DNA of 64,000 nucleotides from Pseudomonadota bacterium (GCA_027624315.1 JAQBXX010000003.1:11800-75799), one strand, 5' to 3'. Shown: positions 15,920 to 57,413, counted from the stretch's first letter. Notes: generated from the sequence alone by a model not told the origin. Numbers and translations: made by a program.

Positions 15920-16126
15920 TCAAATGTAAGGCCTGACCCTAGTGTTTCTGACCCTAGTGTTTCTAGTAGTAGTGTTTCTAGTTTCTAGTGTTTCTAGTAG
16001 TGTTTCTAGTAGTGTTTCTAGTGTTTCTAGTGTTTCACGTAGTGTTTCACGCGGGATGGTTTTGCATTCGTGTTGCAGCAGTGAGTCTGCCTCCTTGCCC
16101 AGGAGTTGGCTGATGCGGTCGATCAT
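15920..16126 (-). CDS. Hypothetical 68-aa ORF whose C-terminal two thirds are encoded by the tandem repeat (…RETLRETLETLETLLETLLETLETRNTTTRNT…)
   Basis: ATG at 16126 preceded by GAGG 7 nt upstream; non-repeat N-terminus MIDRISQLLGKEADSLLQHECKTIP; may be spurious. Confidence 0.25.
   Translation of the reverse strand: MIDRISQLLGKEADSLLQHECKTIPRETLRETLETLETLLETLLETLETRNTTTRNTRVRNTRVRPYI
15934..16050. repeat. Degenerate tandem repeat array, ~10 units of (TAG)n-TGTTTC / GACCCTAGTGTTTC (7-15 nt units)
   Basis: Direct reading: tgaccctagtgtttc x2, tagtagtagtgtttc, tagtttc, tagtgtttc, tagtagtgtttc x2, tagtgtttc x2, acgtagtgtttc. Confidence 0.9.
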
Positions 16127-20622: not shown

Positions 20623-21241
20623 GCGTGATCTCGTCGAGCGCCTGACCGATCTGCGCCTGCACGGTGGACAACTCCTGCGCGGCATCAATCACGCGGTAGC
20701 GCCCGGGGTGTAGCGCGGCCTGCCGCAAATAGTTGTCACGCACACGCTCGAAAAATGCGAGTTGTTCGCTCTCGAAGCGGTCATGCGTTGTGCTGCGCCG
20801 CCCGGCACGCTCCAGTCCGAGCGCCGGGGGCAGATCAAGCAACAACGTGAGGTCAGGCCGCAGTGGGCCTTGCAGCCACTCTTCGAGTTGCGCGATGCGC
20901 TGTTGCGCGATGCCGCGCCCGCCGCCCTGGTAGGCGTAAGTCGCTTCAGTGAAGCGGTCGCACAGTACCCACTGGCCTGCGGCGAGTGCGGGGTTGATCA
21001 CGCGCGCGAGGTGTTCAGCGCGCGCGGCAAACATCAACAACAGTTCAGTATCCACGGCCATACCGTCATTGCGATGACTGAGCAACACGTCACGGATTTG
21101 CTCGCCGAGTAGCGTGCCGCCGGGTTCGCGCGTCACCACGATGTTCTTTTTTGCATTCAGCAGATGTTGCTTGATGAAGGCGATATTGGTGCTTTTGCCC
21201 GCGCCCTCAATACCCTCCATGGTGATGAAACGTGCCGTCAT
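20615..21241 (-). CDS. tmk: Thymidylate kinase
   Basis: 208 aa; FITMEGIEGAGKST P-loop, DRF motif. Confidence 0.93.
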   Translation of the reverse strand: MTARFITMEGIEGAGKSTNIAFIKQHLLNAKKNIVVTREPGGTLLGEQIRDVLLSHRNDGMAVDTELLLMFAARAEHLARVINPALAAGQWVLCDRFTEATYAYQGGGRGIAQQRIAQLEEWLQGPLRPDLTLLLDLPPALGLERAGRRSTTHDRFESEQLAFFERVRDNYLRQAALHPGRYRVIDAAQELSTVQAQIGQALDEITRD

Positions 21242-22278
21242 TATTGTGCTGCCTCCGTCGCAGGGTAATTACCGCCGAGTTGATGTTTGACCACGGCGCG
21301 ATTGTGCTGCTCCAGCGTCGCGGAAAACACGTGGCCGCCGTCGCCGCGCGCGACAAAGTACAGCGCGTCACCGGGCGCCGGATGCAGCACGGCATGAATG
21401 GCGTCTGCGCCGGGCATGGCGATGGGGGTGGGCGGCAGTCCGGTGTGCATGTAGGTATTGTAAGGTGTATCGGACTCAAGATCACGGCGGCGCAGGTTGC
21501 CGTCAAACGACGGCCCCATACCGTAGATTACCGTCGGGTCGGTTTGCAACGGCATGCCTATCCGCAAGCGCCGCACAAACACGCCCGCAATCAGCGGCCG
21601 CTCACTCGCAAGCCCGGTTTCTTTTTCTACGATGGAGGCGAGTGTCAACGCTTCATCGGGCGTGCGTAGCGGCAACCCCGTGCTGCGATTCTGCCACTCC
21701 TGCTGTAGGCGCTGATCCATGGCGCGGTAGGCGCGCTGCAGGAATGCAACGTCGGTAGTGCCCTTGGGGAAATGATAGGTGTCGGGATAAAAACGCCCTT
21801 CCGGATGCTGCCCCGCAAAACCCAGCTTCACCATGATCTCGCGATCGTCTAGGGCGGACAGCGTGTGGCTCAATTTTTCATGCCGCTCTATCGCATCCAT
21901 CAACTGACGGAAGCTCCAGCCTTCTACCAGCGTGAGCGCATACTCGATTACCTTGTCGCTGGCTAACTGATCCAGCAGTTGTGACGGTGTGGTGCCGGGC
22001 GCCAGTGTGTACTCGCCTGCGCGGACGTTACGGCCCTTGTTCTGTAGATACGAAAGCCAGACGAGGTATGAGGCGTGAGACAAGACGCCACGTTGCTGCA
22101 AATCGTGTGCGATCTTTTTCAGCGTCATGCCGGGAGCGACCTCATAGCTCATGTCGCTGCCCCCTGTATTGAGAGGTGTCGTGGTGAAACGGTAATATTC
22201 CACGCTGGCCCATAACGCTGAAAAAAGCAGAATGGCGAACAACGCCGCACCGGGTGATTTCAACAGGTAGCTTAGCAT
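21241..22278 (-). CDS. mltG: Endolytic murein transglycosylase MltG (YceG)
   Basis: 345 aa, N-terminal TM, YceG-like domain; synteny pabC-mltG-tmk. Confidence 0.88.
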   Translation of the reverse strand: MLSYLLKSPGAALFAILLFSALWASVEYYRFTTTPLNTGGSDMSYEVAPGMTLKKIAHDLQQRGVLSHASYLVWLSYLQNKGRNVRAGEYTLAPGTTPSQLLDQLASDKVIEYALTLVEGWSFRQLMDAIERHEKLSHTLSALDDREIMVKLGFAGQHPEGRFYPDTYHFPKGTTDVAFLQRAYRAMDQRLQQEWQNRSTGLPLRTPDEALTLASIVEKETGLASERPLIAGVFVRRLRIGMPLQTDPTVIYGMGPSFDGNLRRRDLESDTPYNTYMHTGLPPTPIAMPGADAIHAVLHPAPGDALYFVARGDGGHVFSATLEQHNRAVVKHQLGGNYPATEAAQ

Positions 22279-23087
22279 GGGATCATAAGGTCATCGACGT
22301 AAACTGCGATGCGACGCGTGAGCAGCCCAGGTGAAAGTTGAACGCCGTCGAGTTCACGCACCGGCCATACGCCGATCACACTATTGCATAAAAATACTTC
22401 ATCCGCATTCTGCATATCGCTTAATGTGAGGTCAGTGACCGCGCACTCCACTCCAGGCTGCTCCATTATCAGGCCGCGCACTATGCCCGCAATGCCGCAG
22501 CGCGATACGTCCGGTGTATATAATTTTCCGTCACGCACCACAAACACATTGCTCATCGTGCCCTCGATGACGCAATCCGCGGCATCCAGCATCAAACCCT
22601 CGGGAATATCGGCGTCGCTCCACTCATTGCGTGCGAGCACCTGTTCGAGGCGATTCAGGTGCTTGATGCCGGCCAGCACGGGATTGAGGCCGAGACGCGT
22701 GGCACAGACGCGCACGCGCACGCCATGTTGCGCAAAATCTTCGGGCCACGAGGCCCACGGGTACAGCGCCAGTATACGGGTTGCGGGCACGGGCGTGGTC
22801 ATGCGATAGCCGCGCGCGCCTGCTCCGCGCGTGATGATGATCTTGAGCACGGCTTGCGCTGCGCTGCTTGAAGTACAGACCTGACGTGCCTCGGCTTCGA
22901 GCATAGCCGTGTCGGGTGGCGTGATGCCAAGGCGCGCACAGCCCGTGGACAAGCGCTGCATGTGCCTGTCCCACAACAACGGCACGCCTGCGCGTACCGC
23001 CAGCGTCTCAAACACGCCGTCGCCGTAATGCAGGCCGCGATCCTGCGCGCTGATCTGTGTTCCCGCTGCGCCGTTGATGAGTATCAT
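22272..23087 (-). CDS. pabC: Aminodeoxychorismate lyase (class IV aminotransferase fold)
   Basis: Real start MILINGAAG... at 23087 (ATGA overlap with pabB stop); track ORF has spurious 138-aa Arg-rich extension. Confidence 0.85.
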   Translation of the reverse strand: MILINGAAGTQISAQDRGLHYGDGVFETLAVRAGVPLLWDRHMQRLSTGCARLGITPPDTAMLEAEARQVCTSSSAAQAVLKIIITRGAGARGYRMTTPVPATRILALYPWASWPEDFAQHGVRVRVCATRLGLNPVLAGIKHLNRLEQVLARNEWSDADIPEGLMLDAADCVIEGTMSNVFVVRDGKLYTPDVSRCGIAGIVRGLIMEQPGVECAVTDLTLSDMQNADEVFLCNSVIGVWPVRELDGVQLSPGLLTRRIAVYVDDLMIPC

Positions 23088-24445
23088 GGCGCGCTGCCCA
23101 GCGCCCCCAGCAGGCCGCGCGCCTTGGCGCGCGTTTCTTCCAGTTCGCGTTGCGGATTGGAATCGGCGACGATACCGGCGCCGGCGCGCAGGCTGATGTC
23201 GTCGCCCTCTTTCACCAGGGTGCGTATCAATATATTGAAATCCATGTCGCCATCGTGGTTGAGATACCCCATGGCACCGGTGTACGCGCCGCGCGGTTCG
23301 CGCTCCAGCTCGGCGATGATCTCCATGCAGCGCACCTTGGGGCAGCCGGTGATGGTGCCACCGGGAAACACCGCGCGCAACACCTCGCCCGGCGTGGTGC
23401 CCGGGCGCAGTTCGCCATGCACGCCGGAGACGATATGATGCACGTGCGCGTAGCTTTCGACGCTCATCAAGTCGTCCACGCGCACGCTGCCGGGCACGCA
23501 CATGCGCCCCAGATCATTGCGTTCGAGATCAATCAGCATGACGTGCTCGGCACGCTCTTTCGGGTGCGCGAGCAATGCCGCGGCATCGGGCCCGTCGTTG
23601 CTGTGGTTTTCGCGCCGTGGCCGCGTACCGGCGATAGGACGGGTTGCGACCACGCCGCCGCGCACCAGCACCAGGCGTTCCGGTGACGAGCTGATGATGG
23701 CGCTCGCTCCATGGCACGCAAGACCGGCGAAGGGTGCCGGATTATGTTCGCGCAGGCGCCGGTAAATCTGGGCGGCGTCGATGGGCGCCCGAAAGCGGCC
23801 GCGCCATAGCCGCGACAGATTCACCTGAAACACGTCGCCCTCGCGGATATAGCGCAGAATGCGTTCAACACCGTCGAGAAACTCCCGCGGCGCATCTTCC
23901 TGCAACGTGATGCCGGGCCAGGTCACCTGCGCCGCACTCGCGTCTTTTTCAAGGGTGGCGATATCCTCGCGCATGCGCACAAGCAAATCCTCGCTGCCCG
24001 GCTCGGCGATCAGGTGCATGCCTTGGGTGGTGTGATCGCGGACGATCGCGGCCGGGATGCGTGTGGCAAACGCTACCGGTAATCCGGATCGTATCTCAGG
24101 CAAACACAGGCTTGGCTCGATCTGCGCGGCGAGTTCGTAGCCGAGATAGACAAACCAGCCGCCGCGGAATGGCAGCGCCGCTGCGGCGGCGGCGCGGGGT
24201 TGCTGCTCGGCTGACCACCAGCGGTCCAGTTGCGCGAGGAAATCCGTGCCCTCTACAGCCGGGCCGCGCAGCGTGGTGAGATCGGCAAGCTCCAGCGTGG
24301 CGCCAGGGAAGGCGAACAGGATGTCATAACGCGCCGCCGCTGTGCCGTGCACCACGCTTTCCAGCAAATACGGATAGCGCGCGGGGTTGAGGGCGTGCAG
24401 CGCCAGCAGGTCGCAATCGCTGTCCGGTGCGCAGTGATCGGCCAT
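23084..24445 (-). CDS. pabB: Aminodeoxychorismate synthase component I
   Basis: 453 aa; chorismate-binding enzyme motifs (IAGTRPRR, LIDLERNDLGR, PGGTITGCPKVRCMEII, GAYTGAMGY); coupled to pabC. Confidence 0.88.
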   Translation of the reverse strand: MADHCAPDSDCDLLALHALNPARYPYLLESVVHGTAAARYDILFAFPGATLELADLTTLRGPAVEGTDFLAQLDRWWSAEQQPRAAAAAALPFRGGWFVYLGYELAAQIEPSLCLPEIRSGLPVAFATRIPAAIVRDHTTQGMHLIAEPGSEDLLVRMREDIATLEKDASAAQVTWPGITLQEDAPREFLDGVERILRYIREGDVFQVNLSRLWRGRFRAPIDAAQIYRRLREHNPAPFAGLACHGASAIISSSPERLVLVRGGVVATRPIAGTRPRRENHSNDGPDAAALLAHPKERAEHVMLIDLERNDLGRMCVPGSVRVDDLMSVESYAHVHHIVSGVHGELRPGTTPGEVLRAVFPGGTITGCPKVRCMEIIAELEREPRGAYTGAMGYLNHDGDMDFNILIRTLVKEGDDISLRAGAGIVADSNPQRELEETRAKARGLLGALGSAP

Positions 24446-24447
24446 CG

Positions 24448-24557
24448 TTACTCAGGAGACACAAAGTATGGATACACGCTGCCCAAGTGTCTCCTGAGTA
24501 AAAACAGTATTAACCCTACCCCCACCCTGTCCCGCCCCCTAAACAGGGGGCGGGGAC
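24448..24557 (+). repeat. Double-hairpin intergenic repeat element, family 1, copy A
   Basis: 15-bp perfect stem ttactcaggagacac/gtgtctcctgagtaa (loop 24 nt) followed by GC-rich hairpin gtcccgccccct/agggggcggggac; near-identical inverted copy at 30676-30786. Confidence 0.85.
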
Positions 24558-24614
24558 GTGTCGGAGAGTGCATCCTTGATAATAAACTCATGCGTAACCA
24601 GCCGCTGACGGAGT

Positions 24615-25868
24615 TCAGCGCAGCCGGTTGAACACCAGCGTGCAGTTGGTGCCGCCGAAGCCGAATGAGTTCGACAGCACCGCGTCGATCTTCATCTGCC
24701 GCGCGCTGTGCGGCACGTAATCCAGATCGCACTCCGGATCGGGCGTGAGCAGGTTGATCGTCGGAGGCGCCACCTGGTCGCGCAGCGCGAGCACGCTGAA
24801 CACCGCCTCGATGCCGCCCGCCGCGCCGAGCAGATGGCCGGTCATGGACTTGGTGGAGCTGACCGCCATCTTGCAGGCATGCGCGCCAAAGGCGCTTTTG
24901 ATGGCAAGCGTCTCGGCCTTGTCGCCCGCCGGCGTGGAGGTGCCGTGCGCATTGATGTAGTCAATCGACTCCGGCGCGAGGTGTGCGTTGCGCAGCGCGT
25001 GCTGCATGCAGCGCTTGGCGCCCTCGCCGCCTTCCGCGGGCAGCGTCATGTGGTAGCCGTCGCCGCTCATGCCGTAGCCGGTGAGTTCGGCGTAAATCTT
25101 TGCGCTGCGGCGTTTGGCATGTTCGTACTCTTCCAGCACCAGCACGCCGGCGCCGTCGCCCAGCACGAAACCGTCGCGCTCCTTGTCCCACGGGCGGCTC
25201 GCGCTGGCGGGGTCGTCGTTGCGCGTGGACAGCGCGCGCGCGGCACAGAAGCCGCCGAGGCCGGTAGGTGAAGTCGCCATCTCGGCGCCGCCTGCGACCA
25301 TGACGTCGGCGTCGCCGTACTCGATGATGCGCCCCGCCTCGCCGATGTTGTGTGAGCCGGTGGAGCAGGCGGTGACGATGGCGATGTTCGGCCCCTTCAT
25401 GCCGTATAGGATGGAGACGTGGCCGGAGATCATGTTGATGATATTGCTCGGCACGAAGAACGGCGAAATCTTGCGCGGCCCGCCTTCGAGATAGGCGCTG
25501 TGGCCCTTCTCGATGCCGGGCAGCCCGCCGATGCCGGAGCCGATGGCGACACCGATGCGGTCGGCGTTTTCGTCGGTGACGACCAGACCCGCGTCTTCAA
25601 CCGCCTCCTTTGCCGCCGCGATGCCGTAATGGATGAACGGATCCATTTTTTTGACATCCTTGGCGGGCATGTAGTGCGCAGGATCAAAGTTCTTCACGCT
25701 GCCGCCAAAACGGGTCGCAAAGGCCGCAACATCGAAATGGGTAATCGGGCCGATGCCGCTCCTGCCGGCCAGGATATTGGCCCAGGATTCCTGTACGGTG
25801 AGGCCGACCGGCGATATCATGCCGAGCCCCGTGACCACCACGCGACGTTTACTCACGCTTGACCTCAA
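24615..25868 (-). CDS. fabF: 3-oxoacyl-ACP synthase II
   Basis: 417 aa; KAS II active-site regions; fab cluster synteny. Confidence 0.95.
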
Positions 25869-25940
25869 CCATGTGTGTCAAAGATATAAAAACAAAGGCC
25901 GCCCATAAGCATGGAGCGGCCTCATAGCTGGACGGGCGTC

Positions 25941-26183
25941 CTAGGCAACAGCGGATTGGGATTTGATGTAATCAACGGCCTGCTGGACGGTAGTGATCTT
26001 TTCTGCGGACTCATCCGGTATCTCGCATTCGAATTCTTCTTCGAGTGCCATCACCAGCTCCACGGTGTCGAGGGAATCAGCGCCAAGATCATCGACAAAG
26101 GCAGACTCGTTGCTCACCTCTTCTTCCTTGACCCCCAACTGCTCAATTACGATTTTCTTGACGCGTTCTTCGACGGTGCTCAT
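25941..26183 (-). CDS. acpP: Acyl carrier protein
   Basis: 80 aa; [20 protein letters not shown] phosphopantetheine site. Confidence 0.97.
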
Positions 26184-26317
26184 GACGGATACATCCTCCC
26201 AACATTGATGAAATTGCTTGAACGGCTGGCGCTATTTTATTGGAAACCGGGTGATTAGGCCACAATCACCGCCAACGTAATGAAACTAAAAGAAAAAGAA
26301 TCCCGGGCGGCGGGCCT

Positions 26318-27061
26318 TCACGCCATATACATGCCGCCGTTCACGTGCAGCGTCTCGCCGGTGATGTAACCCGCCGGCGGCGAGGCCAGGAAGGCCACCA
26401 CGGCGGCGATCTCCTCCACGCTGCCCAGGCGCTTGAGCGGTATCTGCTGTAACAGCGCGGTGCGTTGATCCTCCGGCAGTGCACGCGTCATGTCAGTGTC
26501 GATAAACCCCGGGGCGACCGCGTTCACGGTGATGCCGCGCGACCCCACCTCGCGCGCCAGCGCCTTGGTAAAGCCGAGGATACCGGCCTTGGCAGCGGCA
26601 TAATTGGTCTGCCCCGCATTACCGGCGGCGCCCACCACCGACGAGATGCTGATGATGCGCCCACGCCGCGCCTTCATCATCGCGGGGAGGCACGCCTTGG
26701 ACAGACGATACACCGAGTTCAGGTTGGTGGCGATGATCTCCTCCCAATCGCTGTCCTGCATGCGCATGAGCAGGCCGTCACGGGTGATACCTGCGTTGTT
26801 GACCAGGATGGAGGGTGCGCCGAAGGCCGGCTCTACCGCGGCGAGCAGCGCCGCTACCGACGCCGGATCGGTCACGTTGAGTATGCATCCTGTACCTTTA
26901 ATTTCTTTATTTTTCAATATATTGCTTATTGAATCTGCACCACTTTGTGAAGTTGCGGTGCCAATGACCACCGCCCCCTGCCGCCCCAATTCAAGGGCAA
27001 TGGCCTGGCCGATACCGCGGCTTGCGCCGGTCACCAGGGCGACTTCGTTACTTAAACTCAT
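26318..27061 (-). CDS. fabG: 3-oxoacyl-ACP reductase
   Basis: 247 aa SDR; TGASRGIG, YAAAKAG motifs. Confidence 0.95.
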   Translation of the reverse strand: MSLSNEVALVTGASRGIGQAIALELGRQGAVVIGTATSQSGADSISNILKNKEIKGTGCILNVTDPASVAALLAAVEPAFGAPSILVNNAGITRDGLLMRMQDSDWEEIIATNLNSVYRLSKACLPAMMKARRGRIISISSVVGAAGNAGQTNYAAAKAGILGFTKALAREVGSRGITVNAVAPGFIDTDMTRALPEDQRTALLQQIPLKRLGSVEEIAAVVAFLASPPAGYITGETLHVNGGMYMA

Positions 27062-28008
27062 GCGGGTTCTCCTTCTTGTGTCACGGCGGCAAGTGCTGCG
27101 GCTAGTGTCGCCGGATCATACAGCGGCAGCGTCTTCATCTCCGGCGCGATGCGCTTGTTCAGGCCCGCGAGCACCTTGCCCGGCCCGCATTCGACCAGCA
27201 CGTCCACGCCTTTCTGCGCCAGCGCCTGAATCACCTCGACCCAACGCACGGGCTGGTACAACTGGCGCGTGAGTCCGTCGCGGATGGACGCAGCGTCTCT
27301 GTAGGCCGCGGCATCGACGTTATTTATTACAGGAATACGCGGCGTCTGAAGCGAAGTATTGCGCAGGCGCTCACCGAGGTGCTCCGCCGCAGGCCGCATC
27401 AATGCACAGTGCGATGGCACGCTCACCGGCAACAGCAGCGCGCGTTTGGCGCCCGCCTGTTTGGCGAGTTCCAGCGCACGCGCGACGGCGGCGCTCTCCC
27501 CCGCCACCACCACCTGCCCCGGTGAATTGAAATTGACCGCTTCGACCACCACCCCCTGCGCGGCCTCGGCGCACACGGCGCGCACCTTGGCGTCATCGAG
27601 GCCGAGGATCGCTGCCATGGCACCGCTGCCTTCCGCCACCGCCGCCTGCATGAATTCGCCGCGCCGGGCGACGAGATCGATGGCGCTGCCAAACTCCAGC
27701 GCCCCGGCGCAGACCAGCGCCGTGTACTCGCCCAGGCTGTGACCCGCCAGATATGCGGGCTGCGCTCCTCCGCGCGCCTGCCAGACGCGCCAGGCGGCGA
27801 CACCGGCGGCGAGCATCGCGGGCTGCGTTTTGCAGGTGAGATTCAAGTCCGTTTCCGGACCCTGTTGCACCAGCGCCCACAGGTCATAGCCCAGCACGCG
27901 CGAGGCCTCGGCGTACGTCGCCTCTATCTCTGCATGGCTCTGCGCCAGTTCCGCCAGCATGCCGATGGACTGCGAACCCTGGCCGGGGAAGACAAATGCG
28001 AGCGTCAT
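27058..28008 (-). CDS. fabD: Malonyl-CoA-ACP transacylase
   Basis: 316 aa; GHSLGEY active site. Confidence 0.95.
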   Translation of the reverse strand: MTLAFVFPGQGSQSIGMLAELAQSHAEIEATYAEASRVLGYDLWALVQQGPETDLNLTCKTQPAMLAAGVAAWRVWQARGGAQPAYLAGHSLGEYTALVCAGALEFGSAIDLVARRGEFMQAAVAEGSGAMAAILGLDDAKVRAVCAEAAQGVVVEAVNFNSPGQVVVAGESAAVARALELAKQAGAKRALLLPVSVPSHCALMRPAAEHLGERLRNTSLQTPRIPVINNVDAAAYRDAASIRDGLTRQLYQPVRWVEVIQALAQKGVDVLVECGPGKVLAGLNKRIAPEMKTLPLYDPATLAAALAAVTQEGEPA

Positions 28009-28020
28009 AGTGTTCAGGCA

Positions 28021-28209
28021 CCTCTAAAAATGCGTCTTTTGCTCCAATACTGCGTTGCAGCTTGTCTCCGCTGCTCACATACTGGCGTGTATGCTGTGCT
28101 GCACATGGATGTGCGAATGTCGCGGGCGCAGGACGCGCAGGAGCGACCGCTGCTCGACGGCGCTGCGCCTTGTCTTGAAGCAAAATCCATCATTTTTAGA
28201 AACGCCCGC
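28021..28209 (+). mobile_element. MITE-like repeat, family 2, copy 1 (~189 bp, terminal inverted repeats CTCTAAAAATG.../...CATCATTTTTAGA)
   Basis: ~95% identical to 41000-41186; termini are reverse complements of each other; fills entire fabH-fabD intergenic spacer; no coding capacity. Confidence 0.85.
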
Positions 28210-29166
28210 TTAATACTTCAGCAACGCCGAGCCCCAGGTGAACCCCGCACCGAACGCCTCCAGCAGCAAGGTGTCGCCGCGCTGAATGCGGCCGTCGCGC
28301 ACGGCGGTGTCGAGCGCAAGCGGCACCGACGCGGCAGAGGTGTTGCCGTGCTTGTCCACGGTGACCACCACGCGCTCCATCGGCATGCCAAGTTTTTTGG
28401 CGGTGGCGCTGATGATGCGGATGTTGGCCTGATGTGGAATGAGCCAGTCCACATCGGATTTCTGCAGCTGATTCGCCGCCAGCGTTTCATCCACAATGCG
28501 GTCCAGCGTGTTCACCGCCATCTTGAAGACTTCATTACCCTGCATGGTGACATAGGCACCGCTCGGAGCGTCGGCGATATCCTCGGTGGTCAGTAAATGA
28601 TGGTAGTGCCCGTCGGCGTGCAGGTGCGTGGAGAGGATGCCCGGCTCGCTGTCCGCCTGCACGATCACCGCACCCGCACCGTCGCCGAACAAGACGCAGG
28701 TGTTGCGGTCCTTCCAGTCCACAATGCGTGAAAAAATCTCGGCCCCGACCACCAGGGCGCACTGCGTTGAACCGCTGCGGATGAATTTGTCGGCAATGCC
28801 CAGCGCATAGACGAATCCGGTGCACGCCGCCTGCACGTCAAACGCCGCGCCGCCGCGGATGCCCAGACGCTGCTGTAACAGGCACGCGGTGCTGGGAAAG
28901 AGTTTGTCGGGCGTGGTGGTGGCGACGATGATGAGATCAATGTCCGCGGGCTGTATACTAGCCGCCGCTATGGCCTGGCGCGCGGCGTGCTCGGCGAGAT
29001 CGCAGGTGGTTTCCTCTGCGGCTGCAATGTGGCGCTCACGAATGCCGGTGCGTTCGACGATCCACGCATCCGAGGTCTCCACCATCTTTTCGAGATCGGC
29101 GTTGGTCAGTATCTTGTGCGGCAGATAACCGCCGGTGCCGCGAATGCGCGCGTAGGGATTGTTCAC
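28210..29166 (-). CDS. fabH: 3-oxoacyl-ACP synthase III
   Basis: 318 aa; KAS III motifs (CTGF..., HQAN). Confidence 0.95.
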
Positions 29167-30203
29167 GGTGCGGTGTTCTCCACCAGATGCGATTCGAGCT
29201 GTCGGCCGATGCGCTGTGGCACGTCCTGCGCCACCTCCAGCATGGCCTCGCGGATCGCGTGGCCGAAGGCAAACACATCGGCGCTGCCGTGGCTCTTGAT
29301 GACGCTGCCCTGTAGCCCCAGCAGACTGGCGCCGTTGTAGCGCCGCGGATCCACTTTATTGCGGAACGCCTTCAACACGGGGGCCGCGATCAGCGCGCAG
29401 AGCCGCGTCAACAGGTTACGCTTGAATTCCTGCTTCAGAAAATGCCGCAACATATGCACCACGCCTTCGCTGCACTTCAACGCCACATTGCCGGTGAAGC
29501 CGTCACATACCACCACGTCGGCCTCGCCCGCGTAAATGCCGTCGCCTTCGATGAAGCCGATGTAGTGGATGCTGCTCTCCGCGAGCATCCGCGCCGCTTC
29601 TTTTACGCGCTCGCTGCCCTTGATTTCCTCCGCACCGATGTTGAGCAGGCCCACGCGCGGCCGCACGGTGCCGTCCACCGCATTTGCCAACACCGAACCC
29701 ATGACGGCGAATTGATACAGGTGCTCGGCGCTGCAATCACTGTTGGCGCCGAGATCGAGCATGTAGGTATGACCGGTCATGGTCGGCAGCGCGGTAATAA
29801 TGGCGGGACGGTCGACGCCCGGTAGCATCTTTAATACATAGCGTGCCGTGGCCATCAGTGCACCGGTGTTGCCTGCGCTCACGCAGGCGTGCGCACGCCC
29901 TTCTTTCACCAGGTTGAGGGCGACGCGCATGGAGGAATCTTTTTTGTTGCGCAGCGCCTGTGACGGCAGCTCGTCCATCTCCACCTGTTGCGACGCATGC
30001 TGTATCAGCAGACGCTCGCTGGCGACATATCGGCCTGCCGTCTTGTCAGCTTGCAATGCCGTGCGCAGGATTGCCTCGTCGCCCACCAGAATCAGATGCA
30101 GCGCCTCATGGGTCGCAAGTGAGTTCAGCGCAGCGGGTACGACAACGGAGGGGCCGTGATCGCCACCCATCGCGTCCAGCGCAATCGTCATGGCGCGTAT
30201 CAT
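29163..30203 (-). CDS. plsX: Phosphate acyltransferase PlsX
   Basis: ~345 aa; [12 protein letters not shown]-terminal motif; start may be M at 30203 or 30191. Confidence 0.92.
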
Positions 30204-30434: not shown

Positions 30435-30614
30435 CTACTCGCTTTTGGAGGCGATGACCTTGCGGCCACGATAATAGCCTTCGCGGCTGATGTGGTGCCG
30501 CAGGTGGGTCTCGCCCGTCACGGACTCAACCGACAGGGTGGGCCCGGTAAGCGCATCGTGCGAACGGCGCATGCCGCGCTTGGAAGGGGTTTTACGACTT
30601 TTCTGTACTGCCAT
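30435..30614 (-). CDS. rpmF: 50S ribosomal protein L32
   Basis: Hand translation of minus strand: [59 protein letters not shown]; absent from ORF track (below 60 aa). Confidence 0.92.
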
Positions 30615-30675
30615 GAGCGTGCTCCCTGTTGGGTATTACTGATAAGTCAATAAATAAGCCTACACTTTCCGCTAC

Positions 30676-30786
30676 GTCCCCACCCCCTGTGCAGGGGGCG
30701 GGACAGGGTGGGGGTAGGTAAAACAGTGTCTTTACTCAGGAGTCACATCATTCACATTGTCGCCTTACTTTGTGACTCCTGAGTAA
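30676..30786 (-). repeat. Double-hairpin intergenic repeat element, family 1, copy B (inverted relative to copy A)
   Basis: 16-bp perfect stem ttactcaggagtcaca/tgtgactcctgagtaa plus GC-rich hairpin gtccccaccccct...agggggcgggac; reverse complement aligns to 24448-24557. Confidence 0.85.
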
Positions 30787-30798
30787 TCAATAACGGTG

Positions 30799-31302
30799 CT
30801 ACTGCGGCTTCTTCAGCCGCGCGAGTACCGCAAACGGATGCGGGGGCTTGTCTTCCAGCCGGTCTTCCTGCCCCTCCTGCGCCGGACACTGCCCGGCCGG
30901 ATGCATCGGCACAAACGGTACGGCGAGGATCAGTTCGTCTTCGATGATCTCGGCCAGTTCCATCGGCCCGCTCACCATGAGCGGTTCGTAATCCGCCGGT
31001 AACTGTTCGGCGGCCTCATCTGTTGTCACCAGCCCCAGCGCGAATTCCACATCCACCGGCAGCGCCATGGGTTGCAGGCAGCGCTGGCAGATGATCTGGA
31101 GCCGGGTACGCAGATGCCCGCGCAGATAGGCAATGTGAAGTTCGTCCTTGCCAAACCCGAGTTCCACTTCCACCTCGCCCCGCACCTCGTGCAGAGCAGG
31201 CGCAAGACGCTTGAACCCCACCAGCGGCAGACGACCGTGAAGCTGGCGCCCCGCCTCGGCGAGCCGCAGCGGCTCAATAACCACTGGCAGCTGCTCTAAC
31301 AT
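30799..31302 (-). CDS. yceD: YceD/DUF177 family protein (23S rRNA accumulation protein)
   Basis: 167 aa acidic protein with CxxC...CxxC; conserved yceD-rpmF-plsX order. Confidence 0.85.
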   Translation of the reverse strand: MLEQLPVVIEPLRLAEAGRQLHGRLPLVGFKRLAPALHEVRGEVEVELGFGKDELHIAYLRGHLRTRLQIICQRCLQPMALPVDVEFALGLVTTDEAAEQLPADYEPLMVSGPMELAEIIEDELILAVPFVPMHPAGQCPAQEGQEDRLEDKPPHPFAVLARLKKPQ

Positions 31303-40999: not shown

Positions 41000-41186
41000 C
41001 CTCTAAAAATGCGTCTTTTGCTCCAATACTGCGTTGCAGCTTGTCTCCGCTGCTCACATACTGACGTGTATGCTGTGCTGTACAAGGACGTACGAATGTC
41101 GCGGGCGCAGGACGCGCAGGAGCGACCGCTGCTCGCCTGCGCTGCGCCTTGTCTTGAAGCAAAATCCATCATTTTTAGAGACGCCC
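41000..41186 (+). mobile_element. MITE-like repeat, family 2, copy 2
   Basis: ~95% identical to 28021-28209, same orientation; fills entire msbA-lpxK spacer; right end abuts TTAA containing msbA stop codon; flanked by gacgcc direct repeat. Confidence 0.85.
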
Positions 41187-44056: not shown

Positions 44057-44241
44057 GTTGCGTTACCTGCACCTTACGTGTGGGATGTGGTGGCTATTGT
44101 AGTATATCTTTAACATAGTGACATAAATCGTAGCGAGCGGCTTTCAGGCGGGGGCGGTGGAGCGCAGGAACCGGAGTGTACATAGAAGTACATGAGGATT
44201 CCGAGCACCGCACGCACCCGCATCAAAGACGCGCAGTAGAT

Positions 44242-56016: not shown

Positions 56017-56715
56017 TTAAGGGGTCAGAGCCCTTTTAGCAGGCCGCCCCCGCCTCGACTGGCCCACCCTCATTTTAAGCTTACCCTCTACCTTGTGCTT
56101 GAAGTAGTCGTTCCCCAACGGCGTGCCTGTCTGCCACGCTGCCCTGATTTCATTCATTTCGCTCTGATCAACATGCGCCTTGAACAAGGCGCGGTAGGCT
56201 TCCTTACGCTGCACTGCTGTTTTAGCCAAACTGAGATAAAGCTCGTGTGGAGTGACCAGCTTCTCTTCTCGTCCCTCCCCGTTCGTCCGATAACTCGACC
56301 AGCGGTAATCGCGCGGATGGGCCACCATGTTGGCCCGCACCGGGTTCAGCTCGATGTAGCGCATACAGGTTAAAAGATAATCTTCTTCCTGCACCATACT
56401 GGCTTTGTAACGTCCCTCCCAAAGTGTGCCGCTGGTGCCATACTGATGGTTGACGTAGGGTACGTAACGCCGCCCGACGTACTGCATCATGCGGCTGATC
56501 CCGTCACGGTCACCCGGCGTAGCCAGTATATGCACATGGTTGGTCATCAAGACATAGGCATGTATAGCGCAGTGATAACGGGTCGCTGCCTCCTGCAACC
56601 AGCCCAGATAGGCGCGGTAATCGCTTTCCTCATAAAAGACCGGCTCCCGGTTGTGCCCGCGCTGGACGACATGCACGGGTATGCCAGGCAGATAAAATCG
56701 GGGTTTTCGCGGCAT
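56017..56715 (-). mobile_element. REP-associated tyrosine transposase (RAYT; IS200/Y1-like TnpA_REP)
   Basis: Start MPRKPRFYLPGIPVHVVQRGHNREPVFYEE…HxH motif (NHVHIL) and catalytic Tyr region; track ORF has spurious 48-aa extension through the flanking repeat. Confidence 0.85.
56018..56037. repeat. REP-like hairpin, left flank of RAYT (ttaaggggtcagagcccttt)
   Basis: Inverted copy at 56770-56790; forms aaggg/ccctt hairpin; contains RAYT stop codon. Confidence 0.8.
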
Positions 56716-56769
56716 GATGGCATCACTCTCTGGTCGATCGCTCAACATACCACAGGACACCGCCGTATT

Positions 56770-56790
56770 AAAGGGCTCTGACCCCTTTAA
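56770..56790. repeat. REP-like hairpin, right flank of RAYT (aaagggctctgacccctttaa)
   Basis: Reverse complement of 56018-56037 with one extra A. Confidence 0.8.
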
Positions 56791-57413
56791 TGGTGTCGAG
56801 CACCGCCACCACCCTGGTGTTCGCGCGCCACGCGCGCGGCAACGTGGACCTGGTTCCAATTGCCGCAGTGGTGATCCTGCTCGCCAACCTGATGGTGCTG
56901 GTACGGCTGGGGGTCATTGCCGCCGTAGTATCACCAAACCTGCTGCCCGCACTGCTGCCAGTGCTGGGTGGCGGCCTGCTTGCAGGATTAGCCGGTACAG
57001 CCCTGTTTTGGCGCGACCTGCGCAGTGATGCCGCGTTGCCCGCCCTGGAACTCAACAATCCCACCGAGATACGCACTGCACTGGGCTTCGGCCTGCTCTA
57101 CGCGGCGGTGCTGTTCGCCGCCGCCTGGCTGGCAGATTACGCGGGCAATCAGGGCCTGTATGCCGTGGCGCTGGCGTCCGGCCTCGCCGACGTGGATCCG
57201 ATCACGCTGTCCAGCCTGCGCCTGTTTGCGCTTGGCCGACTGGCCGAAAGCCCGGTGGTAACGGCGATCACCCTCGCCTTTGTCGCCAACCTTGCGTTCA
57301 AATTCGGCCTGATGCTGTTTATCGGCGGCGCGGCGCTGTCGCGCAAGACCGCTGTGGGCATGCTGTCCATCGCTGTGGGCGCAGGCGCCGGGTGGGCAGC
57401 TTTCAATATTTAA
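56790..57413 (+). CDS. DUF4010 (MgtC-family C-terminal domain) membrane protein, possibly N-terminally truncated
   Basis: 207 aa, 5-6 TM helices, Ala/Leu/Gly-rich; starts at the edge of the RAYT right repeat; full-length relatives often carry an N-terminal MgtC domain absent here. Confidence 0.55.
   Translation: MVSSTATTLVFARHARGNVDLVPIAAVVILLANLMVLVRLGVIAAVVSPNLLPALLPVLGGGLLAGLAGTALFWRDLRSDAALPALELNNPTEIRTALGFGLLYAAVLFAAAWLADYAGNQGLYAVALASGLADVDPITLSSLRLFALGRLAESPVVTAITLAFVANLAFKFGLMLFIGGAALSRKTAVGMLSIAVGAGAGWAAFNI

Follow-up and report, generated by a model that had tools for sequence, protein, structure and literature searches.

Known families of short palindromic repeats

Bacterial MITEs are shorter than 200 bp, end in inverted repeats with terminal TA, duplicate their target and form stable stem-loops (PMC2229807). 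Elements of the IS630/Tc1-mariner type insert into TA and duplicate it (PMC2170065). Surveys count more than one million prokaryotic MITEs, mostly genus-specific (PMC11602168), and a further member of this class therefore comes as no surprise.

The Correia element (CREE/NEMIS) of Neisseria is non-coding, has a length of ~100–155 bp, and features inverted repeat ends of ~24–29 bp and a TA duplication. It occurs in tens to hundreds of intergenic copies, which are often co-transcribed with their neighbours and give long stable stem-loops in the transcripts, and no autonomous partner is securely identified (PMC2229807). All these features are shared by the element described here, which lies in two copies, A and B, in a stretch of 64,000 nt from a Pseudomonadota bacterium (JAQBXX010000003.1:11800-75799; the whole stretch is called the window). 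The likeness is architectural only, and the host clade is a different one. Whereas Correia forms one end-to-end stem, the element features two separate internal hairpins. Its core is G+C-rich, in contrast to bacterial MITEs in general, which are A+T-rich (PMC2229807). The long form of Correia has an IHF site. No outward promoter was found in copies A and B of the element.

RUP of Streptococcus pneumoniae resembles the element in being small and non-autonomous, in inserting into TA and in having TA at both ends; the proposal that RUP is mobilized by a transposase of the IS630 family was based on indirect evidence of the kind used here (PMC2229807). For RUP a matching IS (IS630-Spn1) is known, whereas no IS630-family IS with ends that match those of the element was found in ~1 Mb around the copies or in plasmid and phage collections. 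The inverted repeats are ~29 nt long in the element compared with 9 bp in RUP, and the internal architecture differs.

ERIC (IRU) of enterobacteria resembles the element as well: it is an intergenic imperfect palindrome of ~127–150 bp with TA ends and a target duplication, and both are co-transcribed, occur in either orientation and are sometimes fused to neighbouring reading frames (PMC2229807). ERIC consists of a single long palindrome with imperfections and is unrelated to the element in sequence and host. The element is asymmetric in comparison—with hairpin 1 at the left end only and the GC hairpin in the middle.

REP/REPIN sequences, together with RAYT, resemble the element in being dispersed, intergenic and hairpin-forming, and both kinds of repeat are present in the window. 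The element differs by its terminal inverted repeats, its TA duplication, its larger size and the lack of an association with RAYT.

Two copies in the window

Copies A and B have a size of ~148 bp each with the flanking TA and a body of 144–145 bp (Table 1). A repeat finder run on the window pairs the arms 24487–24597 and 30636–30746 (111 nt, 78% complementary) as well as 24448–24476 and 30758–30786 (29 nt, 86% complementary), and the two copies can be aligned over ~150 nt. The 25-mer CTACCCCCACCCTGTCCCGCCCCCT and the 21-mer TTACTCAGGAGNCACAAAGTA occur exactly twice each in the window (0 expected from 100 shuffles), and the nhmmer profile of the whole element finds exactly copies A and B in these 64 kb. 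The first-pass annotation of the window had placed a repeat in the fabF–pabB and rpmF–yceD gaps, and the repeat finder, the k-mers, nhmmer and Pfam all agree with these places. It had given the unit a length of ~110 bp, with weaker homology for another ~40 bp. The repeat itself holds; the 110 nt are part of the ~148-bp element, and the weaker homology is the right terminal inverted repeat.

Table 1. Position of the element copies, their parts and the neighbouring genes in the window
Feature	Position	Strand	Details
Copy A, whole element with flanking TA	24449..24596	+	nhmmer profile and alignment
Copy A, subdivisions	5' TA 24449-24450; body 24451-24594; 3' TA 24595-24596	+	
Copy A, hairpin 1	24448..24501	+	arms 24448-24462 (TTACTCAGGAGACAC) and 24487-24501; 24-nt loop
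Copy A, C-rich core CTACCCCCACCCTGTCCCGCCCCCT	24516..24540	+	last 12 nt are the 5' arm of hairpin 2
Copy A, hairpin 2, GC-rich, GTCCCGCCCCCT..AGGGGGCGGGGAC	24529..24557	+	12 pairs, one bulged G, 4-nt loop
Copy A, right terminal inverted repeat	24569..24597	+	ends ...CTCATGCG-TA-A; inner limit approximate
Copy B, whole element with flanking TA	30637..30785	-	nhmmer profile and alignment
Copy B, subdivisions	5' TA 30785-30784; body 30783-30639; 3' TA 30638-30637	-	
Copy B, hairpin 1	30732..30786	-	arms 30786-30772 (TTACTCAGGAGTCAC) and 30746-30732
Copy B, C-rich core (30717-30693) and hairpin 2 (30704-30676)	30676..30717	-	
Copy B, right terminal inverted repeat	30636..30664	-	ends ...CTTATCAG-TA-A; inner limit approximate
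pabB-like chorismate-binding enzyme gene	23084..24445	-	Pfam; ATG 24445-24443
fabF (beta-ketoacyl synthase)	24615..25868	-	Pfam; 17 nt between stop codon and right end of copy A
rpmF (ribosomal protein L32), downstream of copy B	30435..30614	-	Pfam
yceD, upstream of copy B	30799..31302	-	Pfam

Copy A lies between the stop of fabF and the start of the pabB-like gene and is antisense to the operon; copy B lies between the stop of yceD and the start of rpmF and is sense. Because Pfam places all four flanking genes on the minus strand, the copies are oppositely oriented with respect to transcription, as had been noted in the first-pass annotation for both intergenic sites. The Shine–Dalgarno sequence (AGGGAG) and the ATG of rpmF are undamaged just past the right end of copy B. 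At copy A, the ATG of the pabB-like gene is 2 nt away from the conserved TTAC terminus at 24448 (CTCCTGAGTAA-CG-ATG, 24443–24450), and the same arrangement is found in the orthologue of E1_concoct.bin.78. Any ribosome-binding site of this gene must therefore lie inside the element; the sole Shine–Dalgarno-like motif in the initiation region is a weak GAG.

Architecture of the element

Copy A reads TTACTCAGGAGACAC-(24 nt)-GTGTCTCCTGAGTAA, followed by AAACAGTATTAACC and by CTACCCCCACCCTGTCCCGCCCCCT-AAAC-AGGGGGCGGGGAC, and the reverse complement of 30636–30786, i.e., copy B, has the same layout. Structure prediction gives 15-bp arms for the first hairpin and a 12-pair GC stem for the second, in line with the long perfect hairpin and the GC-rich hairpin that had been described for each copy beforehand. 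Compared with copy A, hairpin 1 of copy B carries a compensated A:T to T:A change, and in hairpin 2 of copy B one C to T change turns a stem pair into G.T. The left terminal inverted repeat (~24448–24476 in copy A) contributes its outer part as the 5' arm of hairpin 1; the short 3' arm (15 nt) repeats the outer end in inverted form and is its third copy.

The left half of the consensus consists of TA, CTCAGGAG(T/A)CACAAAGTAAGnCTACA.., a short inverted repetition of the outer 15 nt that gives rise to hairpin 1, and AAACCCTGTTTACT. The right half consists of the C-rich core with the 12-bp GC hairpin, GTAGCGGGAA, the right inverted repeat ending in ..CTGACTTATGAG, and TA. The end of the element can be written as TA-CTCAGGAGWCAC... 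or as TA-CTCAGGAGWCACAAAGTAAG. The borders are sharp: when 88 complete copies are aligned, conservation goes up from ~0.3 to 0.8–0.9 at TTACTCAGG and drops after GAGTAAC, which delimits a unit of ~150 nt. The two terminal 29-nt stretches of this unit, the left of which reads TTACTCAgGAGTCAcaAAGTAAGnCTACA, are imperfect inverted repeats of each other. Over these 29 positions, 67.6% of the cells are complementary in 85 copies, compared with 26–38% if the partner is slid by 1–3 columns, and in the copy of locus L080 the two ends match at 24/29 positions.

Hairpin 1 is present in every subfamily. In the 85 copies, 93% of the cells are paired, and each of the 15 pairs features changes on both sides; arm variants are GGAGTCAC/GTGACTCC, GGAGACAC/GTGTCTCC, CAAGAAGAAAC/GTTTCTTCTTG and TAAGGCGAAAC. 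The inner pairs comprise 972 Watson–Crick pairs, 6 G.T pairs and 36 others. G.U pairs are thus not enriched, which argues for a palindrome at the DNA level rather than for an RNA fold under selection. The folding energies for both strands of copies A and B are −58 to −63 kcal/mol, and the z-scores relative to shuffled sequence lie between −4.4 and −5.7. RNAalifold on the family yields the two hairpins and no further helix; additional conserved helices, e.g., CTAC with GTAG, were considered and are unsupported by this calculation. The ends contain stop codons (TGA, TAA), and no ORF is conserved among the copies.

Three occurrences of hairpin 1 without core or right end are found at L070:3277, L065:4823-4873 and L082:4759-4834. 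These solo hairpins could have originated by deletion between two right-end-like repeats or by independent mobility of a mini-palindrome.

Copy number and host range

The family was searched with the exact 25-mer core in 185,579 species genomes. This search yields at least 92 stretches in at least 15 MAGs and, among the matches listed, all are from uncultured gammaproteobacterial MAGs. Exact-core copies amount to at least 41 in E1_concoct.bin.78, the closest relative, at least 25 in HER22_SIP_1000_bin_23_1, at least 9 in G04_MAG_00022 and fewer in a dozen others. These numbers stand against a pair of copies that is confined to the two sites genome-wide, the case in which the first-pass annotation would have preferred a local duplication or a regulatory structure. 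Further carriers include MAGs with the submitter labels Ectothiorhodospiraceae, Chromatiaceae and Porticoccaceae, and in the matched gene regions the carriers have a nucleotide identity of ~72–78% to one another. Locus L050 of E1_concoct.bin.78 is the orthologue of window positions 21021–29194, is ~90% identical, and carries copy A at the same place. At locus L112, which matches the window with 100% identity, the contig end falls inside copy A, a typical assembly break at a repeat.

A blastn search with the consensus against 72,556 plasmids and 50,697 phage records gave no match, and a full-text literature search with four sequence strings of the element returned unrelated primer matches only. 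The family appears to be undescribed, although of a well-known kind.

Insertion into TA and duplication of the target

The site of copy B is empty in ten relatives (L102–L111), which were found as contigs encoding an identical RpmF. In the nine of them with both genes called, the yceD–rpmF spacer measures ~35 nt, compared with 184 nt in the window. Locus L104, 90–97% identical to the window, reads ...CACCGTTATTGAT-TA-ATACCCAACAGGGAGCACGCTCATG, and in the window the same flanks enclose TA-[CTCAGG...ATCAG]-TA; in short form, GAT-TA-ATACCC in L104 is opposed to GAT-TA-[element]-TA-ATACCC in the window. The BLAST alignment of L104 breaks at window positions 30784/30638 with an overlap of 2 nt in L104. 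The TA signature is also seen in the clean filled/empty pairs L020/L052 and L056/L081, whereas the comparisons L042/L054 and L079/L026 are untidy.

Over 85 copies, the flank logo is T (55/84), T (64), A (77) on the left of the element and T (70), A (74), A (73) on its right, and TA is present on both sides in 52/85 copies. From these flanks, the target is a TA within a TTAA-like site. As judged by the comparison of filled and empty sites, copy B is a clean insertion with TA duplication at such a target.

Placement relative to genes

Orientation was called from a simple GC3-based reading of the flanking ORFs. By this measure, 39 copies between co-directional genes are sense and 21 antisense—a mild sense excess—while 10 copies lie between divergent and 8 between convergent genes. 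The stop codon of the upstream gene is located at or inside the element in ~22/50 cases, and the offsets 0 and +18 recur. When the element enters a TAA or TAG stop at its TA, the result is TAC TCA GGA GTC ACA AAG TAA, i.e., an extension by six codons with a stop supplied by the element; in the pair L020/L052, the last two codons of the gene are replaced by element sequence. A start codon at the right end (ttATGagtaa) was considered as a general property and discarded, as it is in frame and open in 15/61 cases, about the number expected by chance. In some of the cases, e.g., a TrpB-like gene in L064, there is no start nearby other than the ATG of the right end.

Neither a sigma-70 promoter consensus nor an intrinsic terminator was found on either strand of copies A and B; the sequence after hairpin 2 is GTAGCGG on one strand and AGGGTGGGGG on the opposite one, with no T run. 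This absence of both consensus types in either orientation would explain why the element is tolerated in essential operons such as yceD-rpmF-plsX-fab. In a genome of ~60% G+C, TTAA sites cluster at gene ends, which would account for the location of the copies in short intergenic spacers and often inside TAA or TAG stops.

Slow evolution of the GC hairpin

The slowest-evolving part of the element is, in the aligned copies, the internal GC hairpin and not the ends, which is atypical for a MITE. In 12 copies of divergent subfamilies, the ends, the linker and the region after the hairpin are 48–65% identical to the consensus, whereas the 3' arm of hairpin 2—which lies outside the search pattern—is 92% identical. 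The seemingly invariant 25-nt core, on the other hand, is largely an ascertainment effect of the exact-match search. When hairpin 1 alone is used for the retrieval, nine copies come out: the core is exact in two of them and has a single mismatch in one; three of the others carry a 24-nt nested insertion (mini-hairpin) in the core, and three are truncated or deleted. The profile search finds the same kinds of decayed copies in MAG loci. An asymmetry of mismatches in hairpin 2 (31 C.A vs 4 G.T) was likewise discarded as a sign of a transcribed strand, since the search pattern fixes the 5' arm.

In two of three orthologous pairs, the conservation of the element outside the loop of hairpin 1 equals or exceeds that of the flanking genes. 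The third pair (L064:2890-3056 and L069:4945-5111) features elements of different subfamilies at the same site, with flanks that are 89–92% identical. Outside the core these two elements are ~65% identical; they are either independent insertions at a hot spot or the outcome of a replacement by gene conversion.

A subfamily with a 24-nt mini-hairpin (e.g., CCCGTTCAAGCCGGGGGCAGGCTC) inside the C-rich core is represented by L070:3158-3331, L073:3055-3228, L094, L097 and L100, which suggests an even smaller nested palindromic element.

A fragment of 43 nt comprising the MITE core and hairpin 2 is present in three IMG/VR contigs (L116:3610-3652, L117:2684-2726 and L118:2270-2312). It lacks the terminal repeats as well as hairpin 1, and a second C/G-rich hairpin comes after it. 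The contigs belong to a T7-like podovirus, as judged by Pfam matches to portal and capsid, and the fragment lies between the scaffold-like and the capsid gene. It may be a piece of the MITE that links the phage to the host clade, or a module that is used independently. A scan of viral sequences with the left end gave three matches, all coding and chance-looking. The GC hairpin alone was also followed in phages, where it yields generic GC hairpins without the C-rich flank and is uninformative.

Proposed mobilization in trans and alternative explanations

The element is very probably a MITE, i.e., a non-coding, non-autonomous DNA transposon of ~145 bp, which owes its movement to a DDE transposase that acts in trans, duplicates TA and is most likely of the IS630/Tc1-mariner type. 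It is small (below ~300 bp) and non-coding, has terminal inverted repeats, is dispersed in many copies, is polymorphic for presence, and its filled and empty sites differ by a target duplication, all of which are properties of MITEs. Its borders are sharp, and it occurs in both orientations. Insertion into TA with duplication of this TA is the hallmark of IS630/Tc1-mariner elements and points to mobilization in trans by such an enzyme. A transposase encoded elsewhere would bind the imperfect terminal inverted repeats of ~29 nt; the element would be excised and then inserted at a TA, preferably within T-TA-A, whereby the TA becomes duplicated. The GC hairpin may be needed in cis for mobility, such that only intact elements make new copies. 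Binding of a transposase to the two ends alone is insufficient to explain one feature: hairpin 1 is palindromic even in copies whose inner part no longer matches the right end (e.g., L026, L059 and L062). A search for an autonomous partner in ~1 Mb around the copies found no isolated ends, no end pairs at the spacing of an IS and no repeated DNA of IS size. Upon transcription, the neighbouring mRNAs would acquire a pair of very stable hairpins. As in Correia and ERIC, these could alter mRNA processing or stability, an effect that has been demonstrated for other bacterial MITEs, and the effects within operons would be those of processing or stabilization and not of termination.

The same hairpins invite three other readings of the element as a whole. 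A REP/REPIN-type unit, spread by a RAYT—a domesticated IS200-like Y1 transposase—that acts on DNA hairpins, would fit an element dominated by two hairpins, in one of which palindromy is kept across subfamilies as if structure rather than sequence were recognized; moreover, a RAYT gene lies in the window at 56017–56859(-) (Y1_Tnp, E = 6e-14). Its flanking REPs (TTAAGGGGTCAGAGCCCTTT, 56018–56040 and 56768–56790), however, differ from the element, as the first-pass annotation had already observed. A correlation between copies and RAYT genes, which that annotation suggested looking for, is absent: tblastn finds one RAYT homologue in ~1 Mb around more than 100 copies. In addition, a length of 148 bp is much larger than that of a REP, and neither inverted repeat ends of ~29 nt nor a TA duplication are features of REP/REPIN, which makes this origin highly improbable. 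Of the earlier designation as a REP/MITE-like mobile palindrome and not an oriented sRNA, the MITE part thus stands by the inverted ends, the TA duplication and the occurrence in both orientations, and the REP part falls with the different REPs and the scarcity of RAYT. Somewhat less remote, although still improbable, is a 'PATE' of the IS200/IS605 type, in which the element would be a hairpin-dependent single-strand remnant inserted 3' of TTA or TTAC without any duplication and with the right TA borne by the element. A 2-bp duplication and an element-borne TA look the same in sequence, hairpins near the ends are conserved as structures, and the conserved left flank TTAC is similar to the target of IS608, which is TTAC. 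The ends of IS200/IS605 elements carry hairpins in direct orientation, whereas the ends of the element are inverted repeats of each other over ~29 nt. The flank preference is symmetrical (T-TA ... TA-A), which fits a palindromic target of the TTAA type that is cut with a stagger of 2 nt, and the orientation bias is only mild.

Least probable is a set of oriented sRNA genes or a cis-regulatory RNA such as an attenuator, a terminator or a riboswitch-like leader. The very low folding z-scores, the covariation in hairpin 1, the many copies just 5' of start codons and the mild sense excess are in favour of this reading. Both orientations are common, however, and G.U pairs are not enriched. Copies decay through truncation and nested insertion, and close relatives do without copy B while their rpmF leader is otherwise near-identical. 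Promoter and terminator consensus are lacking in copies A and B, and Rfam 15 gives no hit at the gathering score for either copy; permissive thresholds yield noise, with at most 17.5 bits compared with cut-offs of 45–150. Of a different kind is the proposal that the C-rich tract and the GC hairpin (CTACCCCCACCCTGTCCCGCCCCCT..AGGGGGCGGGGAC) are a conserved functional cargo, either a binding site for a protein or transposase accessory or a structure-forming module; the MITE would then act as the carrier by which a DNA/RNA module with a regulatory or structural role is spread among operons. Across MAGs, the core and the GC hairpin remain near-unchanged while different sets of terminal repeats evolve around them, and their complement, GGGGGCGGGACAGGGTGGGGG, is a G-quadruplex motif of the textbook kind with four tracts. 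The 43-nt phage copy, which has no ends, adds to this suspicion. The conservation of the GC hairpin is most simply read as selection acting on the element itself and less likely as a functional module; the cargo proposal is rated as unlikely.

Use of the element and other repeats in the window

As a MITE, the element represents an ordinary type of selfish DNA, here carried by a group of uncultured Gammaproteobacteria. Its annotation explains contig breaks, as in L112 and in the many loci that end at copies, as well as long spacers in conserved operons. It also brings out gene ends that were remodelled by element-supplied stops and, possibly, some start codons or ribosome-binding sites. The element furthermore provides a clean presence/absence marker for strains or species of this uncultured gammaproteobacterial lineage, and the core fragment in the T7-like phage may offer a link between virus and host.

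A second small repeat of 187 nt is found at 28012–28208 and 41000–41186 of the window with 96% identity; one of the two copies lies in the fabH/fabD spacer. It is absent at the orthologous site of E1_concoct.bin.78, where L050 joins 7013/7015, and present at that site in HER22 (L103:4793-4995, 79% identical), and is thus polymorphic for presence as well. A piece of this repeat is nested in the MITE copy of L018 (~1340–1400).

The RAYT gene is flanked by its REPs in inverted orientation and adjoins a DUF4010 ORF at 56790–57413 (+). This ORF matches profile positions 32–210 only, as if the RAYT unit had cut off the 5' end of the gene. A tandem array of short GTTTCTAGT(AGT) units extends over 15950–16048. 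At 44119–44193 (-), the window features a possible sRNA gene in the form of an Rfam match to the Xanthomonas sRNA sX9, which also hints at the lineage; the match has 46.8 bits, compared with a gathering score of 44.
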